This document shows, piece after piece, positions 4,313 to 51,145 of a DNA stretch of 64,000 nucleotides (position 1 is its first letter; the number at the start of each line of letters is the position of its first letter). A model generated the notes under the pieces. The model did not search any database. It worked only from the letters and a program-made list of their open reading frames with translations, and was not told where the DNA came from. A program made the translations under genes and the position numbers. Origin of the DNA: Candidatus Nomurabacteria bacterium (GTDB lineage: Bacteria; Patescibacteriota; Minisyncoccia; Phycocordibacterales; CAIJYI01); the NCBI GenBank assembly GCA_943356445.1, contig CALREZ010000003.1, forward strand, positions 6,125 to 70,124, read 5' to 3'.

Positions 4313-6613
4313 TTATCGTGCCATCATTCCTTCGGCATCTTCAAATTTTATAGAGAGAATCTTGGAGATGCAGTCTATTCCGACGGTTACGCCGTAGATA
4401 ATTCCGGCGTGGGACATGGTTTCTCGATTATGCGTAATAATCGCGAGCTGAGAGGTTTTGGAAAGCGTTTCCAGCATCATGCCATATTTTTTGGAATTGG
4501 ATTCATCAAGAGCGGCATCGGTTTCATCAAGCACCAGGAATGGCGGAGGATTGACCTGTGAGACGGAAAAAAGCAGAGCAATGGAAGTGAGTGTCCTTTC
4601 GCCCCCCGAAAGCATCTGAATGCCCCGGAGACGCTTGTGCGGCAAAGAGATATTTATTTCCAAGCCCTCTTCCATCGCCTCGTCGTAGCCGAGGTCGGCG
4701 GAGGCGGGGTCCTCCAAGACAGATTCAAGACTCACGTCGCTTTCTTCTGTTTTTTTCTTTTTCGGAGGAAGCACGGTCTTAAGCGACGCAGTACCTCCGC
4801 CGAACAGCACCGTGAAAAATTCTTGGAATTGTTTGTTTATCTTTTCCAATCCGTCTTTGAATTCCGCCGCCAGCTTTTCTGAAAGTTCAAAAATGAGCTG
4901 ATGCAAAGATTCGGCGCTTTTTTCCAAATCGGTCAGTTCGCGGTCAAGAAAAGCATCGCGGTCAATCACCTCTTCGTATTCTTTGAGCACGTCTTCTCCT
5001 CCGCCGACACCGAGCTCTTCAATGCGAATCTTCATGCGTTCAACATTCTTTTTACGATTGCGCTGGACTTCGCGGTCTTCGGCAAAAGCTTCTTCTTCGT
5101 TTACAGACACTTTTCCGTAGTCCAAGATTTGAGAACCGACAAGAACGCCCGCCTCGCCGAGTTCGCTTTTAAAATCCTGTTCTTCCCTCTCTATTTCAAA
5201 ATGACGGGAACGGCAAGAATTTACTTTAAGCGCCGCCTCGCTTCTTTTGGACATCATGCCGAACAGTTCGCGTTCCGTGTCGCGCGTTGCATCTTTTTCT
5301 TTTTCCGCCGACGCTTTCATGGAAGTATACAGCGCTTGCACCCGTTCTTCCTCTTCATGAAGCGCGCGCATTTCCCTTTCAACTCCCTCTTTTTCTTCGC
5401 GGCGTTTCAAAAGCTCTGCCTCGCTTTCCGCAAGACCGGTATCTTCAATTGGGTGAACTTCCTCTTTAGATGAAGCTTGATCTATAAAACCATGAAGCAG
5501 CATTCTGATATTCGCCAGCGCTTCTTTTACCTGTCCGACGTCCTCCAAAGAATGAGCGGTCTGGATCATTTCGTCAGCCATCTGCACCATTTCACGAATA
5601 CGAGAAAGCGATACGGGAATATCTTTTGTTTCCGTATGATTTTTCTTTTCTTTTTCTCTCGCGATGCGACGAACTTCGGACTCTATCATTCCCTCCAGCC
5701 GTCCAAGCGCGCGAGAAAATTCATCTTTCTTGTTCCTCACGGAACGGATATCCGCTTCCAATTTTAAAATTTCCACAGAAAACTGGCTTTCCTTTCCGTC
5801 GGCGGCGATCGTTTCCCTCGCTTTTTGTATCTGTTCGTCCAAAACGCGCAATTCTTCTTTCGGCCCCTTCATCGCCTCTTCATTTTCCTTTTTTTGATGT
5901 TCCAAATACAGTTCCTCTCTTTTCAGGTATTCCGCATATACGCCGGCGAGTTCATCGCGCAATTTCTTGACGCGTTCAATTCTTTCTACCTGTTTTTTCA
6001 AAAAAGAAATGCGCGGAGCCAGTTCTTTCCGCAGGAGCGAAATTTCACGGACATTTTCTTCCGTTTTTTTAAGCTTTCGTTCGCTCTCGTTGATTTTGTA
6101 TTGGTAGATGCGCAAACCAAGCGCGTCTTCTATCATGATCCGACGTTCTTTAATGGAAGCAAAAAGGAATCGGTCGGTTTCGCCTTGAGAAATAATATGA
6201 TGGGCGGAAGAACCAATGTGCGCAGCCGAAAGTAATTCAACAATATCTTTCAAGCGAACCGCCGTACCGTTGATCAAGTATTCGTTCGTCCCGTCGCGAA
6301 AGACCTGCCGGCCGATGGTCACCTCATTGTAATCAAGATCAAAAACCCGGTCGGTATTATCAAAAGTGATAACCACGGTCGCCTGATTGGTTCGTCCCAA
6401 CGCTTTGGATCCGTTCCAGATAAGATCCTCGCCTCGTTTCCCTCGCAGTGATTTAATGGACTGCTCACCCAACACAAAACGCATCGCTTCCGCAACATTG
6501 GACTTGCCCGACCCATTGGGCCCGACAATGGCAGTAATAGGAGCGCTAAAATCCAGCACGGTCTTCTTCGCGAACGATTTAAAACCGGTGATCTCAATTC
6601 GTTTTAATCTCAT
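4313..6613 (-). CDS. smc: SMC-like chromosome-segregation ATPase of about 767 aa, with both head halves present but no recognisable hinge
   Basis: The N-terminus MRLKRIEITGFKSFAKKTVLDFSAPITAIVGPNGSGKSNVAEAMRFVLGEQS carries the Walker A. The C-terminus LSGGERTLTSIALLFSV...FLVLDETDAALDE carries the signature and Walker B. The middle is coiled-coil-like E/K/R-rich sequence with no glycine-rich hinge motif. Confidence 0.7.
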   Translation of the reverse strand: MRLKRIEITGFKSFAKKTVLDFSAPITAIVGPNGSGKSNVAEAMRFVLGEQSIKSLRGKRGEDLIWNGSKALGRTNQATVVITFDNTDRVFDLDYNEVTIGRQVFRDGTNEYLINGTAVRLKDIVELLSAAHIGSSAHHIISQGETDRFLFASIKERRIMIEDALGLRIYQYKINESERKLKKTEENVREISLLRKELAPRISFLKKQVERIERVKKLRDELAGVYAEYLKREELYLEHQKKENEEAMKGPKEELRVLDEQIQKARETIAADGKESQFSVEILKLEADIRSVRNKKDEFSRALGRLEGMIESEVRRIAREKEKKNHTETKDIPVSLSRIREMVQMADEMIQTAHSLEDVGQVKEALANIRMLLHGFIDQASSKEEVHPIEDTGLAESEAELLKRREEKEGVEREMRALHEEEERVQALYTSMKASAEKEKDATRDTERELFGMMSKRSEAALKVNSCRSRHFEIEREEQDFKSELGEAGVLVGSQILDYGKVSVNEEEAFAEDREVQRNRKKNVERMKIRIEELGVGGGEDVLKEYEEVIDRDAFLDRELTDLEKSAESLHQLIFELSEKLAAEFKDGLEKINKQFQEFFTVLFGGGTASLKTVLPPKKKKTEESDVSLESVLEDPASADLGYDEAMEEGLEINISLPHKRLRGIQMLSGGERTLTSIALLFSVSQVNPPPFLVLDETDAALDESNSKKYGMMLETLSKTSQLAIITHNRETMSHAGIIYGVTVGIDCISKILSIKFEDAEGMMAR

Positions 6614-6678
6614 TGTTTTTATTTTACAATTTTTTTCCCGATTACACAAAAAACCGGCCGAAGCCGATTTTTTATTTG

Positions 6679-6762
6679 TGCGCCGGGTTGGATTCGAACC
6701 AACGAAGGCGTAAGCCGCGAGATTTACAGTCTCGTGTATTAGACCACTCTACCACCGACGCG
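6679..6762 (-). tRNA. tRNA-Tyr (anticodon GTA) with a long variable arm
   Basis: Reverse-complement reading gives GCGTCGG..GAGACTGTAAATCTC..(long variable arm)..GGTTCGAATCCAACCGGCGCA. The acceptor stem is 7 bp and the anticodon loop is CTGTAAA. Confidence 0.8.
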
Positions 6763-6811
6763 ATATGAGCAGTATACCAGAAAATTTTGAAAAAGAAAGC
6801 TCGTAGTACGC

Positions 6812-6838
6812 CCGGTTCGGGGTTGTACCCCAAACCGG
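6812..6838. repeat. REP-like palindrome (CGGTTCGGGGTTGTACCCCAAACCGG)
   Basis: GC-rich hairpin. It is the inverted counterpart of the copy at 7487-7512 and resembles the copy at 6904-6930. Confidence 0.6.
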
Positions 6839-6903
6839 AACGTTTGGATAATTATATCTAAGTTTGTCTTAAAAATCCAAGTTTCCTTGATTATACAAAC
6901 GTT

Positions 6904-6930
6904 CCGGGCCGAGGTACAACCTCGGCCCGA
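6904..6930. repeat. REP-like palindrome variant (CCGGGCCGAGGTACAACCTCGGCCCG); forms an inverted doublet (REPIN-like) with 6812-6838
   Basis: Same stem-loop architecture with a TACAA core; it lies 65 nt from the first copy in opposite orientation. Confidence 0.55.
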
Positions 6931-6942
6931 CAACAAAAGAGA

Positions 6943-7446
6943 TCATTCATTCACATTATCAGATTTCAACTCGCAACTTTCATTTGCAGACGACCAGTAC
7001 CAAAAAGAGGCATCCGAAACATAATTCTTCCGAACAGGATTTTCTAAAATATAATTCAATTTTTGTTGAAAAACTTTTTCATATTCAAGGACAATCGGCA
7101 TATTCGTGTCTTGCCAAATAGAATAAGTTCCATCCTCTTCAACAAACATTTTTTCAATGTTAGGTTCTGTTATAACTACATTTTTATGTATTTCGCGAGA
7201 AGTGTACCTTTTAAAATCCCGAACAAAACCAGCGGCATCGGGAGATTCTACAATAAGATGGATATGGTTGAGCATAAAAACAAAACCGTAAAGTTTTAAG
7301 TTTTTATTTTTTCTGCAGTACTGAAGAGAATCGGCGATGATATTCCAACGATTATGCCGGTCAAAAATGTAATACCATTTTTTAGCGGTAAATGTGAGAA
7401 AATAGACGGACGAATTTAATTCTTTGGAAATTTTTTTAATAGACAT
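6943..7446 (-). mobile_element. REP-associated tyrosine transposase (RAYT), IS200/IS605-like Y1 HuH transposase
   Basis: HuH motif LNHIHLIV, a C-terminal Y motif KLNYILENP, a size of about 167 aa, and REP-like palindromes on both flanks. Start taken at MSIKKISK; the ORF extends to 7536. Confidence 0.7.
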
Positions 7447-7486
7447 AAATGGTACTATAACGAAGTTTTTTGACAGACACAAACAT

Positions 7487-7512
7487 TTCGGTTCGGGGTA
7501 CAACCCCGAACC
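7487..7512. repeat. REP-like palindrome (CGGTTCGGGGTACAACCCCGAACCG) immediately upstream of the RAYT gene
   Basis: Inverse complement of the 6812-6838 copy. Confidence 0.6.
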
Positions 7513-7559
7513 GGCGATAAAAGAAAGACCCGCCAAGGTGCGCTTGGCGGGTCGGGGTT

Positions 7560-7862
7560 TTATTCTCCAAAGTGAGAGTTCGGAACGAGGCTCCAGAGGC
7601 CGTTCATGGAAATGACTTTGGCGCGACGTTCGGCGAGATCCAAAATTTCATGGATTAAACGTGGCTCGCGGACAAAAAAGAGCAGATCGGAAACAAAAAC
7701 AATTTCACCGATAGTGAATCCGTCTTTCCGAAAAGCAGTCGATAGCTCTTGGAGAATTTCCAAAATATCTTTTTCTGTGGGAGCTCTATGCTGTCTTGTT
7801 TCGCTCGCCTTTTCCGTTAAGATACGAGCGTCGTATGCTTGGATAATTGCTTTTTTGTTCAT
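7560..7862 (-). CDS. Hypothetical small protein downstream of clpB, possibly co-transcribed
   Basis: ORF only, with start taken at MNKKAIIQ; no family recognised. Confidence 0.4.
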   Translation of the reverse strand: MNKKAIIQAYDARILTEKASETRQHRAPTEKDILEILQELSTAFRKDGFTIGEIVFVSDLLFFVREPRLIHEILDLAERRAKVISMNGLWSLVPNSHFGE

Positions 7863-7949
7863 GCCGTGTCTCCTTTTGAAAACAAGTTCCATATTTATAT
7901 AAACACAAAAAGAAAAGCGAGTCAACATGACTCGCTTTTCTTTTTGTGT

Positions 7950-10628
7950 TTATGCGGTAACTTTTTCTTTCTGCCCCTTCCCTACCGGTTTGCGTTTTAT
8001 TTTATCAGCGGTAATGGTGAGTTCGCCATTCTTCATTCCGACGGACACGACTCCTCCGAAGAGCATGCCTTTGGAGATCATCATCGTGGCGACAGGATTC
8101 AAGATCTTGTTTTGAATAAGCCGCTTCAGTGGTCTCGCGCCGTACTGAGGGTTGTATCCTTCTTTAGCAAGATATTCAAGAGCCGATTCAGAAACATTGA
8201 GAATAATCTCTTTTTCTTTCAATCGTTTCTGAACGATGGCAACCTGAAGACCGGCAATTTCTCTGACGGCTTCTTGGGAAAGAATATCAAAGATAAGAAT
8301 TTCATCCAAACGATTCAAGAATTCCGGACGGAAATAATTTTTGAGAGCCGCGGTCACTTTTTCTTTCGCTTCAGTATAATCCGCCGCATCGGTCGTATTG
8401 GAAAATCCGATAGACTTCATCCGATCAATGAATTCGGCGCCGATATTGGAAGTGAGAATAATGACGGTATTTTTAAAGTTGACCGTTCTTCCTTTTGCGT
8501 CGGTAAGGCGTCCGTTATCCAGCACCTGCAAAAGAATGTTGAAGACTTCCGGATGAGCTTTTTCTATCTCGTCAAACAAGAGAACGGAATACGGTTTATG
8601 ACGGACGAGTTCGGTGATATTTCCGCCCTCTTCATGTCCGACATATCCGGGAGGAGAACCGATGATTTTTGAAACCGAGTGCTTCTCCATGTACTCGGAC
8701 ATATCTATGCGGATGAGAGACTTCTCGTCATTGAACAAAAATTCCGCCACTGCTTTGGAGAGCTCGGTCTTTCCCACTCCGGTGGGGCCCAAGAAAAGGA
8801 ACGAACCGATCGGATGGTTCGGATCGGCAATGCCGACGCGAGAGCGTTTGATGGCATCCGAAATTTTCTCAATCGCGCTGTTCTGTCCGACGACGCGGGC
8901 GCGGAGACGATCTTCAAGCGTGCCGAGTTTCGCCGCTTCTTCTTCCAGCATTTTTGAAACGGGAATTCCCGTCCACTTGGAAACAATATCGGCGATTTCC
9001 GCTTCGGTGATTTCTTCTTTAAGAATTCTCTGCGCGCTTTTGAGTTTTTTCAAACGAAGGCTTTTGGAAGCAAGTTCTTTTTCCAGCGTCGGAATTTTTC
9101 CGTAGCGGATCTCGGCAACGGTGGCAAGATCGGTGCGAGCTTCGGCGGTTTCCGCTTCAAGACGAAACGCATCAAGCTGTTTCTTTATCTCGCGCATGGA
9201 AGTGAGAATTTCTTTCTCGTTTTTCCATCTCGTCTCCACGTCATGCGTTCTTTCGCGAAGGTCGGCAATCTCTTTATCAATATCTTTCATGCGGGATTTC
9301 GCGTTGTGTCCTTCATCCGTTCCCGCTTCTTTTTTGAGCGCTTCTTTTTCAATTTCCAAACGCATAATCTTGCGATGCGCATCTTCAAGTACCGCGGGTT
9401 TGGTTTCCAGCGAAATTTTCAGCATGGAAGCGGCTTCATCAATGAGGTCAACCGCCTTGTCGGGCAAGAACCGATCGCTGATGTAGCGTCCGCTCAAATT
9501 GACGGCGGAAAGAATGGCGTCATCGGTGATGCGTACCCCGTGATAGAGTTCGTATTTTTCTTTGAGTCCGCGAAGAATGGCGACCGCGTCGGGAATGGAA
9601 GGTTCGTTCACTAAAACCGGTTGAAAGCGGCGAGTAAGCGCGGGGTCTTTTTCAATATGTTTTTGATATTCTTTGAGTGTCGTCGCTCCGATAGCGCGAA
9701 GTTCTCCGCGAGCAAGCGCGGGTTTGAGCATGTTGGAAGCGTCCAGAGAACCGTCCGCTCCGCCGGCTCCGACAATCATGTGTATCTCGTCAATAAAAAG
9801 AATGATCTTCCCTTCGGAATGTTCGATCTCTTTCATAATCGCCTTCAACCGCTCTTCAAATTCTCCGCGATATTTCGTACCAGCGACGAGCGAACCGATA
9901 TCAAGGGAAACGAGTTCTTTGTCTTTGAGGGATTCGGGAACATCGCCTTTCGCCATGCGGATCGCAAGACCTTCAACGACGGCGGTTTTCCCCACGCCGG
10001 CTTCTCCGATCAAGATCGGATTGTTTTTGGTTCGGCGGGAAAGTATCTGCATGATGCGGGCAATCTCAACGTCCCGACCGATAACCGGATCAAGTTTGTC
10101 TTCGCTCGCGAGTTTTGTCAGGCTTCTCGTATAGCGCGAAAGCACTTTGGATTTTTTTGGAGCGCTGACATCGGTAATGTTTCCGTTTTTGAATTCCTGC
10201 AGAATGCGGAGCACTTCGTCTTTGGTAATTTTGAAACGGGCGAGAAGCTCGCGGGATGTCTGGGAAATTTCTATGAGGGAGAGAAAAATGTGTTCGGTGG
10301 AAATAAAGCTGTCGTTCAGGGATTGGGAAACCTTGGCGGAATTTTCCAGTACGTTGGCAATCTCAGGGGTCAGGTACATCTGGTACGACGGAGACATGGT
10401 GGTACTGTTCTCGTTCGTTTCAAGAACCGCAAGAAGAGAATCTATGAGAAGATTCTGATCCGTTTCCATTCGGTCTAAAATGGCAATAACCGGGCCTTCT
10501 TCCTGGAGAACGAGCGCGGCGAGAAGATGCAAAGAATCAACGTGGTTTTGTCCGCGTTCAATAGCCAATTCGTGAGCTCGGCGAATCGCTTCTTTTGCTT
10601 TAGTGGTAAAGTCTTTAAGTGGCGGCAT
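7950..10628 (-). CDS. clpB: ATP-dependent chaperone ClpB (Clp_N domain, two AAA+ modules, long coiled-coil M-domain)
   Basis: Clp N-domain repeats; GEAGVGKTA in AAA-1; [19 protein letters not shown] in AAA-2; a long middle coiled coil; sensor-2 GARPLKR. Confidence 0.9.
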
Positions 10629-10701
10629 ATATATTTAGATAAAAAAGAAAAACCAATAATGATTTTTCTTTTGTTTATGATACAAGAGTAGGTAAAGATT
10701 G

Positions 10702-11553
10702 TCAAATTCCCGGCAGAGCGCTCGGCAGAGCCTCTAGAGCAGCAGCTTGAGAAGCCGCCGATTTATCGGTTTTTGGCTTTTTATACTCGTTTATGGCGCT
10801 TTGAATTTGGGCCGAAGAAAGAGAAAAACCCTTGCCTTCCGCCGGAATCATATTGATTCCGATAACCCTTCCATCAACCCCGAATATCGGGCCTCCTCGG
10901 TCGGAAAGAGATAAAGAGAGAGAACTCAGTATCTGGGATTTTGTAATTTCCGAAACAATTCCTTGCGAGACGGCTCCGCCGCTTTTTCCTCCGAGAGAAA
11001 GAATGGTTTGTCCGAGTTTCGGATCCGAGAGAGAAAGAGGCGCCCCGCGAAGAGTGATAAGTTTTTTATCGTCAAACAGTTCCAAAAGCGCCACACCCGT
11101 TTTTTCATCAACAAAAACTTTTTTACCCGTATATGTTTTTCCATTCAGAAGAGTAACGGAAAATTCATTCCATTCGCCCAGAACGCCGGCATCGGTAGCC
11201 ACCACCCCGCCCCCGTCGGCAAGAAATCCAATCCCGCGTTTTTCCCCTTCGCTCGTTTCGGTTTTTGGAGTAAAGATGCTTGCCATGTAGGAAAGATTGG
11301 ATTGCACGGAAGCAACAATTTGGTCGTTCTCGGTTAAAACGGGAGCAACCGCCGGAACTTTAATAACCGAAGGCGTCGTTGTTCCGGTAACGACCCGTTC
11401 TATCGTTTTTTCCACAATGCGATTGAAGGTTTGAGAAATGACGGGCGTAGAATCGGTAAGCATGGATACGATAACGATACTCGTCGCCGTAGAAGCAACG
11501 AAACTTACCAAAAGATTCAAGAGCACTATTTGTTGTTTTGTGAGATCTTCCAT
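10702..11553 (-). CDS. Membrane-anchored trypsin-like (HtrA/S1 fold) protein, apparently catalytically inactive (pseudo-protease)
   Basis: S1-like blocks GFLADGGGVVATDAGVL, TGVALLEL and LSDRGGPIFGVDGRVIGIN align to TNNHV, DLALLK and GNSGGP. H, D and S are each replaced (G, G, R). The N-terminus has a TM helix. Start taken at MEDLTKQ. Confidence 0.55.
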   Translation of the reverse strand: MEDLTKQQIVLLNLLVSFVASTATSIVIVSMLTDSTPVISQTFNRIVEKTIERVVTGTTTPSVIKVPAVAPVLTENDQIVASVQSNLSYMASIFTPKTETSEGEKRGIGFLADGGGVVATDAGVLGEWNEFSVTLLNGKTYTGKKVFVDEKTGVALLELFDDKKLITLRGAPLSLSDPKLGQTILSLGGKSGGAVSQGIVSEITKSQILSSLSLSLSDRGGPIFGVDGRVIGINMIPAEGKGFSLSSAQIQSAINEYKKPKTDKSAASQAAALEALPSALPGI

Positions 11554-18491: not shown

Positions 18492-18565
18492 CGGGATGTA
18501 GTATACCGGTAGTACATACGATTCGGGTTCGTATAGACCGGGTTCGATTCCCGGCATCCCGACCA
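18492..18565 (+). tRNA. tRNA-Pro (anticodon CGG) with encoded CCA
   Basis: Acceptor CGGGATG/CATCCCG-A-CCA, anticodon stem-loop TACGA-TTCGGGT-TCGTA, T-arm CCGGGTTCGATTCCCGG. Confidence 0.75.
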
Positions 18566-18830
18566 TATTAAAACAACCTTCAATTACGAAGGTTGTTTTA
18601 ATATGGTCGGGATGAGCGAGTGACCTGCGTCACTCGCGTCCGGAAATCGAAGATGTTGAGCCTGTCGCAGTGAGCCGGAGAGGCGAAACGAGACGCGAAA
18701 CATGTACCGTCCATGTAATGGAAGATATCCCGGCATCCCGACAATTTGAATATCACTCGCGCGGCTCGCTCTGCGTCTGATGAAAACCTACGGTTTTCAT
18801 ACTTTCCCTTGCCTGACCTCAGGCACGGTT
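18566..18830. repeat. Highly structured region downstream of tRNA-Pro. It holds a 27-bp inverted repeat incorporating the tRNA 3-prime end, a second GC hairpin, a 15-nt direct copy of the tRNA-Pro 3-prime end at 18731-18745, and an 11-nt copy of the tRNA-Leu acceptor end at 18806-18816
   Basis: CCCGACCATATTAAAACAACCTTC-AATTAC-GAAGGTTGTTTTAATATGGTCGGG. GAGCGAGTGAC-CTGC-GTCACTCGCGTC. TCCCGGCATCCCGAC repeated. ACCTCAGGCAC repeated at 17885-17895 and 18806-18816. Confidence 0.5.
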
Positions 18831-47386: not shown

Positions 47387-47495
47387 TTCTGGCGGCTACC
47401 TACTCTTCCCCCGAAGGAGTACCATCGGTACTACGGCGCTTAACTGCTGAGTTCGAAATGAGATCAGGTGTGACCACCGCGTCAAGCCACCAAAA
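47387..47495 (-). rRNA. rrf: 5S ribosomal RNA
   Basis: Reverse complement TTTTGGTGGCTTGACGCGGTGGTCACACCTGATCTCATTTCGAACTCAGCAGTTAAGCGCCGTAGTACCGATGGTACTCC...GGGAAGAGTAGGTAGCCGCCAGAA, with helix I termini pairing. Confidence 0.85.
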
Positions 47496-47749
47496 CAAAA
47501 AACTCAAAGAGTTTTTCGGAGAAAAAAGTTAAAAGCAGAAAGTTGAAAGTGACGAAATCGTCGGACTTTTTACTTTTACCTTTTTTCTTTTTATTTATAT
47601 TATTTACAGAATCGTTTCGCAAGCATTTTAATCAAAAGACGTAAGTAGAAAGTTAAAAATAAAAAGATAAAAGTAATGCCGTCGCCGGACTTTTTACTTT
47701 TAACTTTCTACTTTTTTCTTCATGTGTGATTTTCAACTTTCCTAATAGG

Positions 47750-51145
<3,396 letters not shown>

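Follow-up and report, generated by a model that had tools for sequence, protein, structure and literature searches.

We report here that a locus in a 64,000-nt stretch of DNA from a Candidatus Nomurabacteria bacterium (positions 6,125 to 70,124 of contig CALREZ010000003.1; hereafter the window, whose coordinates are used throughout) is very probably a REPtron, that is, a single-copy gene for a REP-associated tyrosine transposase (RAYT, or TnpA_REP; a class 2 Y1 HUH enzyme) lying among cognate copies of its repetitive extragenic palindromes (REPs) and of their inverted doublets (REPINs). RAYTs and REPINs are the best-studied case of a transposase and non-autonomous repeats that persist by vertical descent, and whether the host benefits from them is debated. 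At this locus the gene product has the family membership, motifs and predicted fold of a RAYT, its flanks carry mutually inverse hairpins whose structure is under selection, and in sister genomes gene-less copies of the same REP are dispersed with a fixed doublet geometry. The features of the locus are as follows.

6943..7446, minus strand: RAYT gene, intact, for a TnpA_REP-like HUH/Y1 enzyme of 167 aa, identified by family models, motifs and predicted fold.
7480..7518, plus strand: upstream REP, CAAACATT-TCGGTTCGGGG-TACAA-CCCCGAACCGG-CGAT, with its hairpin at 7489-7513; it fits the consensus of 72 copies described below.
6896..6934, plus strand: REP just 3' of the RAYT stop codon and inner half of a doublet, with a variant stem (CGGGCCGAGG/CCTCGGCCCG) and the common loop and 5' flank CAAACGTT.
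6808..6846, minus strand: inverted REP and outer half of the doublet, with a hairpin at 6812-6838 that includes one G.T pair; it is the inverted-repeat partner of the upstream REP.
6808..6934, no strand: REPIN-like inverted doublet of two REPs, with the CAAACGTT ends inward and 92 nt from centre to centre.

An initial annotation, made from the sequence alone, had placed here a 167-aa minus-strand protein with the motifs LNHIHLIV and YILEN and had assigned it to the RAYT class of HUH/Y1 enzymes. Indeed, the open reading frame (ORF) at 6943-7446 encodes a product that begins MSIKKISKELN and carries LNHIHLIV and NYILENP, and its ATG at 7446 coincides with the first methionine of 35 homologues in our alignment. 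A longer ORF with a TTG start (6943-7536, 197 aa) was rejected, since the homologues all begin at the ATG and the extension would cross a REP. The profile search proposed in that annotation bears out the assignment. The protein passed the Pfam model Y1_Tnp (PF01797) with 27.3 bits against a cut-off of 23 and, by a narrow margin, the NCBIfam model NF047646 (REP_Tyr_transpos, REP-associated tyrosine transposase) with 85 bits against a cut-off of 80, a model that all 36 aligned members of the family match; it failed the IS200/IS605 model NF033573 (20.7 bits against a cut-off of 55). Each of the 25 columns that are invariant in the 36-sequence alignment is present in the window RAYT, including N60, H61, W111, Y132, N136 and P137. 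The HUH motif is kept as N60-H61-I62-H63 (in the 36 sequences N60 and H61 never vary, and H63 is conserved in at least 90%), W111-Q112 is conserved in the family, and the signature Y132-ILE-N136-P137 is invariant across the 36 sequences. Y-x3-N-P is the signature of class 2, TnpA_REP-like enzymes, whereas class 1 IS200 transposases have Y-x3-Q (PMC6006769).

The structural comparison gave the same assignment. A phmmer search of the PDB returned a sole match, E. coli TnpA_REP (4ER8), with E = 0.012 over 59 residues, in an alignment where Y132 falls on the catalytic Y115. Counted by offset from this register, N136 corresponds to the metal ligand N119 and W111/Q112 to W94/Q95; H61/H63 lie outside the aligned stretch and are paired with H59/H61 by the HUH motif only. 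An AlphaFold model of the window RAYT (pLDDT 89.4) was then compared by Foldseek, in which 4ER8 was again the top match (TM score 0.68, E = 6.5e-7, 15% identity), with the transposases of IS200, IS608 and ISDra2 ranking behind it. One copy of the RAYT gene is present in the 64-kb window.

The gene had also been described as flanked by mutually inverse, GC-rich palindromes beside a tRNA-Tyr gene, and this too we could confirm for the hairpins at 7489-7513 and 6812-6838 and for a minus-strand tRNA-Tyr (6678-6761), whose distance to the nearest REP hairpin is 50 nt. The upstream hairpin (7489-7513) is CGGTTCGGGG-TACAA-CCCCGAACCG, with a perfect 11-bp stem; the hairpin at 6905-6929, CGGGCCGAGG-TACAA-CCTCGGCCCG, likewise has a perfect 11-bp stem, in a sequence unlike that of the upstream hairpin, and its variant stem is also found in the orthologous copy of a sister locus (L041/L008). 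Common to the three hairpins that flank the RAYT is the core GGTACAACC, whose three occurrences in the 64 kb all lie here, against 0.14 expected by chance; a count of three was reached in 0 of 100 shuffles. With up to three mismatches allowed, the 25-mer had two matching sites, 6813-6837 and, on both strands, 7489-7513, and none in shuffles. The RAYT is bracketed by 35-nt inverted repeats (6812-6846 and 7480-7514) that are 91% complementary, and the doublet has 40-nt inverted arms (6813-6852 and 6890-6929) with 37 nt between the arms and 66 nt between the hairpins. Free energies of DNA folding lie between -13.6 and -15.6 kcal/mol for the single hairpins (z between -3.2 and -7.2) and at -35.3 kcal/mol for the doublet (z = -7.2). 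The hairpins match no Rfam family at the gathering threshold. A separate canonical terminator at 7527-7553, followed by a T-run, ends the upstream 122-aa ORF, and the REP palindromes are therefore not needed as terminators. No further REP copy or remnant was found in the other 63 kb of the window, which is unsurprising given that the density in relatives is roughly one per 40-50 kb, itself a lower bound.

We scanned GTDB-representative genomes, a collection that does not include the window's own assembly, with one pattern, TTNYGGNNNGRGGTACAACCYCNNNCCR; in search-motif form the REP reads CAAACRTTYCGG-N3-GRGGTACAACCYC-N3-CCGGCG. The scan returned 53 loci, 42 of which came from three metagenome-assembled genomes (MAGs) of Paceibacterota/Parcubacteria that also hold the closest RAYT orthologues. 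Counted within the scanned loci, these three MAGs have at least 28, at least 26 and at least 16 REP copies, and the RAYT gene is present in only four of their 42 loci, the other 38 being gene-less. From 72 unique copies we derived the consensus CAAACGTT(T/C)CGG-NNN-GGGG-TACAA-CCCC-NNN-CCGGCGA(C). The REP is thus a unit of about 38 nt with an 11-12-bp hairpin in which the apex GG-TACAA-CC and the 3-bp G-C foot are fixed and the three middle stem pairs covary freely; its single-stranded flanks (CAAACGTT and GCGAC) are conserved. The flanks CAAAC and GCGA, which were outside the search pattern, are 78-99% conserved over the 72 copies.

At the three stem positions left free by the pattern, 151 of 168 cells in 56 pattern-chosen copies form Watson-Crick pairs, compared to 73 +/- 5 in shuffles, with up to four pair types per position. 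In a second alignment (A2), 97.1% of stem cells pair and 69 cells are changed on both sides, which none of 500 shuffles equalled, and the slid controls of this alignment collapse. Covariation beyond that of shuffles indicates that the REP hairpin itself is under selection. Judged by a crude ORF proxy, 61 of the 72 copies are intergenic; they occur in all gene orientations, and nine lie between divergent genes. As a separate observation, the REP 5' flank AAACGTTT (for example at 6838-6846 and 6896-6904) is an 8-nt palindrome in most copies, so that this motif is present on both strands beside the hairpin.

In total, 18 inverted doublets were found, one in the window and 17 in the related MAGs. 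All 18 have one orientation, with the CAAACGTT ends inward, and 16 of them (15 of the 17 in related MAGs) are spaced 88-92 nt from centre to centre. The earlier suggestion that a third palindrome variant forms an inverted doublet in the REPIN arrangement therefore stands, since the two hairpins are 66 nt apart and the geometry matches that of the relatives' doublets. The spacers within doublets are homologous among the unrelated loci L014, L031, L033 and L055 of one MAG, and the window spacer is homologous to those of the RAYT-flanking L041 and the dispersed L020 doublets, both from the MAG JAPLYL01. Homologous spacers at unrelated loci of one genome show that the doublet has been copied as a whole, the behaviour by which a REPIN is defined. 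The window doublet has the properties of a REPIN, its multi-copy status coming from relatives only. The loci L033 and L015 remain collinear with the window as far as a REPIN that is absent from the window, and both stop before the far flank.

The window RAYT lies in a ClpB/SMC neighbourhood, and its close orthologues (73-86% identical) have other gene contexts, namely UvrD/KsgA in L003, another set in L005 and GrpE/SMC in L008. The same hairpins accompany them; read on the gene strand, the upstream loop is GTTGTAC and the downstream loop GTACAAC. The stems in L005 differ in sequence. Analogous hairpins with GG-T(T)TGCAA-CC loops are found in Methylobacter luteus, whose RAYT is 56% identical, and at a Moranbacteria locus, and the AAACGTT flank is also present at the Methylobacter hairpins. 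The RAYT family is 53-60% identical across phyla, and among 80 metagenomic loci of the family, 68 have a REP-type hairpin within a few hundred bases of the gene, often several.

The initial annotation held that an intact system is notable in bacteria of the candidate phyla radiation (CPR) and may be a recent acquisition. The first remark needs correcting, and the second is not supported. The RAYT gene is not rare in the CPR: most of the named entries among the 120 matches listed, of 842 in all, are Patescibacteria, and many are labelled RayT or transposase by their source. As for acquisition, the sister MAG JAPLYL01 carries the RAYT, the REPIN, the tRNA-Tyr and SMC at the same position, with 83% identity over one 2.3-kb alignment, and the low G+C content of the gene (0.33 against 0.44 for its surroundings in the window) is family-wide. 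A foreign origin inferred from this low G+C was rejected, since the gene lies 5-11 points under its surroundings in every lineage examined, including Methylobacter (0.47 against 0.55). Carriage by plasmids or phages as a sign of recent transfer was rejected as well: the family is nearly absent from plasmids, with four distant matches in 72,556, and no phage match was obtained. It is a chromosomal, low-copy family, with one or two diverged copies per related genome.

Several observations within the family are recorded here in their own right. In two cases a single genome has a pair of diverged RAYT paralogues, L038 with L016 (MAG JALNYN01) and L074 with L080 (contig Ga0074195_1000003, 997,691 nt). 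The JALNYN01 paralogues each have their own hairpin stem, CGGTTCGGGG in one and CGGACGGCAG/CGAACGGGGG in the other, which hints at one REP subfamily per enzyme. At positions 7-165 of L023/L067 (JBAYGK010000139.1), a fragment corresponding to the first ~53 residues of a RAYT (66% identity) stands directly upstream of a REP and a full-length RAYT, suggesting a REP-associated partial duplication. A REP-like hairpin, CGGACAGGGG-TGCAA-CCCCAGTCCG, at 10868-10892 of L003/L070 lies inside a called KsgA/RrnaAD gene (10589-11464), apparently without disrupting it, and may be an intragenic REP. Hairpins with the apex GGGGTACAACCCC also occur in distant phyla, some with AAC(C/G)GTT-like flanks, at L021, L049, L054, L058 and L062 (Ignavibacteria, Zixibacteria), L028 and L052 (Rhodospira, Roseospira), L050 and L053 (Hyphomicrobiales) and L044 (Methylocucumis); no RAYT gene was found within these loci, which are 2-8 kb each.

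The locus could be read in other ways. One is that it is an autonomous IS200/IS605-type insertion sequence, in which the gene and two subterminal hairpins, as left and right ends, would move as one unit. A hairpin-gene-hairpin block does recur in varied neighbourhoods (ClpB/SMC here, UvrD/KsgA in L003, others in L005 and L023), with 35-nt inverted repeats around the RAYT; moreover, one MAG and one 998-kb contig have two paralogues each, L023 has a 5' fragment of the gene upstream of the full gene, and RAYT and IS200/IS608 TnpA enzymes have a common fold. We nevertheless consider this reading unlikely, the evidence against it being the stronger. The score of 20.7 with the IS200 model is to be set against a cut-off of 55, the tyrosine motif is the Y-x3-N-P of class 2 and not the Y-x3-Q of class 1, and the flanking hairpins are inverted, whereas IS608-type ends lie on the same strand. 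There is also no tnpB gene or tnpB-like neighbour at the locus, the paralogues are only ~73% identical and so are not fresh copies, and the hairpins, gene-less in 38 of 42 loci, far outnumber the gene.

Quite unlikely, in our view, is that the locus is a domesticated relic, its enzyme kept for a host function (e.g. the processing of structured single-stranded DNA or RNA) and its REPs being old immobile copies that now serve as mRNA-stabilising or terminator-like elements. RAYTs have been argued to behave like housekeeping genes (PMC5581495), and a relic would be in keeping with a RAYT that is strongly conserved (53-60% identity across phyla), single-copy and chromosomal, with REPs that are mostly intergenic and with zero dispersed REPs in the window. 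It is hard to reconcile with the recurrence, at unrelated sites of one and the same genome, of identical or near-identical REPs and of doublets whose spacers are homologous, or with relatives' loci that align to the window and bear REPs where the window has none beyond its three. Together, these near-identical dispersed copies and the presence or absence of REPs relative to the window indicate movement since the species diverged. In addition, the hairpins lack T-tracts, and the nine of 72 that lie between divergent genes are at sites where a terminator has no role. That the palindromes are simply intrinsic terminators, as the initial annotation had allowed, or chance hairpins unrelated to the RAYT is scarcely credible. 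They do lie in intergenic DNA at gene ends, and our consensus scan lists 7513-7489 as terminator-like, but the upstream gene already has its own canonical terminator and T-run (7527-7553), the loop and both flanks are conserved over 72 copies while the stems covary, the hairpins accompany the RAYT across phyla, the doublet geometry is fixed and the core is expected only 0.14 times per window by chance. This reading is already refuted by the chance test, conservation, covariation, doublet geometry and the family loci.

Some of our results nonetheless weigh against a REPtron. The 72 REP copies do not have the canonical 5' GT[AG]G foot, which is required by the E. coli enzyme; at this place one strand reads GTCG(C) and the opposite strand CAAACGTT. 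Counted from the 4ER8 register, the E. coli residues that read GTAG (E100, H101 and R104) are not conserved in the window RAYT, nor is the metal ligand H123, which corresponds to K140. The replacement of the GTAG-reading residues fits a different DNA foot, and the details of recognition may differ accordingly. In a blastn comparison of the relatives' 42 REP loci with the window, no clean polymorphism between an insertion and an empty site was seen. Only three REPs, all flanking the gene, are seen in this genome, from the 64-kb window, and a REP population in this organism is therefore extrapolated from sister species, in which REPs are themselves sparse (at least about one per 40-50 kb) next to the classic systems of Pseudomonas or E. 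coli.

If the locus is a REPtron, its catalysis, cleavage site, recognised strand and any present-day mobility in this genome may be sketched from homology with E. coli TnpA_REP and the IS608/ISDra2 TnpA enzymes. The RAYT would bind the REP hairpin in single-stranded DNA, for example in the lagging-strand template. A metal bound by the HUH motif (H61/H63, with N136) and Tyr132 would then cut the DNA beside a conserved flank, giving a 5'-phosphotyrosine intermediate, and rejoining of the strands would excise REP doublets (REPINs) or copy them to new intergenic sites. The RAYT gene itself would not be multiplied, the doublets being its non-autonomous passengers.

RAYT/REPIN systems are well described, and many of the homologues in Patescibacteria are already labelled RayT or transposase by NCBI and JGI; full-text literature searches found no description of RAYT/REPIN systems in Patescibacteria or CPR bacteria. 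Among known systems, the closest structural match is the E. coli REPtron (TnpA_REP, also RayT/YafM, 4ER8, with its REPs and bacterial interspersed mosaic elements (BIMEs); Quentin subclass 2.2, Bertels Group 2). Both enzymes are Y1 HUH proteins of ~165 aa with Y-x3-N-P, both are encoded by a low-copy gene that has its own hairpin repeats, inverted to each other, on either side, and the REPs of both are dispersed intergenic repeats, often in inverted doublets. However, the two enzymes are barely similar in sequence (E = 0.012 over 59 residues; 15% identity structurally), and in the present system the hairpin is near-perfect, the apical loop GG-TACAA-CC and both flanks are conserved and REP density is far lower.

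Compared by motifs alone, the window RAYT appears to fit best with the TnpAY1 subclasses 2.4 or 2.6 of Quentin et al. 2018 (Bertels Groups 4/5), which have NH[ILV]H, WQ and YI(H/L)xNP. In subclass 2.4 the foot of the REP stem consists, like that of the window REPs, of three G-C pairs, genes of subclass 2.6 are flanked by genome-recurrent 'atypical' hairpins, and the RAYTs of Groups 4 and 5 occur as single copies and evolve slowly, all of which recall the locus described here. Unlike the window system, REPs of subclass 2.4 bear GT[AG]G and are often inserted inside the gene, and the median lengths of subclasses 2.4 and 2.6 are 194 and 179 aa, respectively, compared to 167 aa here. The Quentin and Bertels studies drew on complete genomes, and Patescibacteria are not mentioned there.

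The REPINs of Pseudomonas fluorescens SBW25 (Bertels and Rainey 2011) consist, as here, of two inverted REPs with a short spacer of fixed length, and they likewise recur as whole doublets at unrelated intergenic sites and flank the RAYT. Their sequence is unrelated, however, copies per genome number in the tens here and not in the hundreds, and the hosts are far smaller, the largest contig of a RAYT-bearing relative being 998 kb. With IS200/IS605 TnpA (IS608, ISDra2) the window RAYT has in common the HUH/Y1 fold and, presumably, the recognition of subterminal hairpins in single-stranded DNA; it differs in the response to the IS200 model, the tyrosine motif, the multi-copy gene and tnpB of those elements, and the orientation and distribution of the hairpins. 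We also compared the CGTC-tagged REPs (Di Nocera 2013), which were reported without a transposase, and rejected them on stem length, stem composition and tag conservation: our REPs have a conserved GTCGC preceded by C in only 35 of 72 copies, and an 11-12-bp stem that starts with C-G/G-C and has no CCA tail, whereas the CGTC type has an 8-9-bp stem with an A-T start, a 4-5-nt loop and a CCA tail.

The intact RAYT and cognate REPs found here, and the REPIN populations in sister genomes, extend the known host range of such systems to Patescibacteria. Patescibacterial genomes rank with the smallest and most streamlined in bacteria, and they offer a compact setting for testing the host-benefit hypothesis. 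A REP that departs from the GTAG rule, with a conserved loop and two conserved flanks, would constitute a second recognition code beside that of the E. coli structure. REP-like hairpins of this type occur in Paceibacterota, Methylococcales, Rhodospirillales, Hyphomicrobiales and Zixibacteria, and it is conceivable, though we put it forward only tentatively, that the subfamily of 167-aa RAYTs and the AAACGTT-flanked REPs with a GG-T(A/G)CAA-CC loop form a distinct REP/RAYT lineage that keeps its recognition code across phyla. Were this so, the lineage would be maintained with small REPIN populations even in episymbiont genomes of roughly 1 Mb, contrary to the published trend of RAYT-bearing genomes being larger than average, which would argue for a RAYT/REPIN pair that benefits its host and is not tolerated junk. 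The interest of the locus is modest and lies in the ultra-small host genomes and in a non-canonical REP code conserved across phyla. On the practical side, such REPs may cause breaks when CPR MAGs are assembled from short reads, and it would be useful to mask or annotate them.

Elsewhere in the window, two long palindromes and the ribosomal RNA genes deserve mention. Directly after the stop codon of clpB comes a 55-nt perfect palindrome with a 26-bp stem (7899-7953), which overlaps the 122-aa ORF at 7560-7928 at its annotated start. The palindrome is probably the clpB terminator, and the ORF more likely starts at an internal methionine. A second perfect palindrome, of 60 nt with a 27-bp stem (18555-18614), begins inside the 3' end of a tRNA-Pro gene (18492-18565); it may represent the scar of an integration site or else a terminator of an unusual kind. 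By Rfam there is no 16S rRNA in the window, and the rRNA genes thus appear unlinked. In the region 47387-51145, a 5S rRNA follows the 23S rRNA, whose match spans 3405 nt against a model of 2925 nt, and the ~480 extra nucleotides are possibly insertions or an intron.

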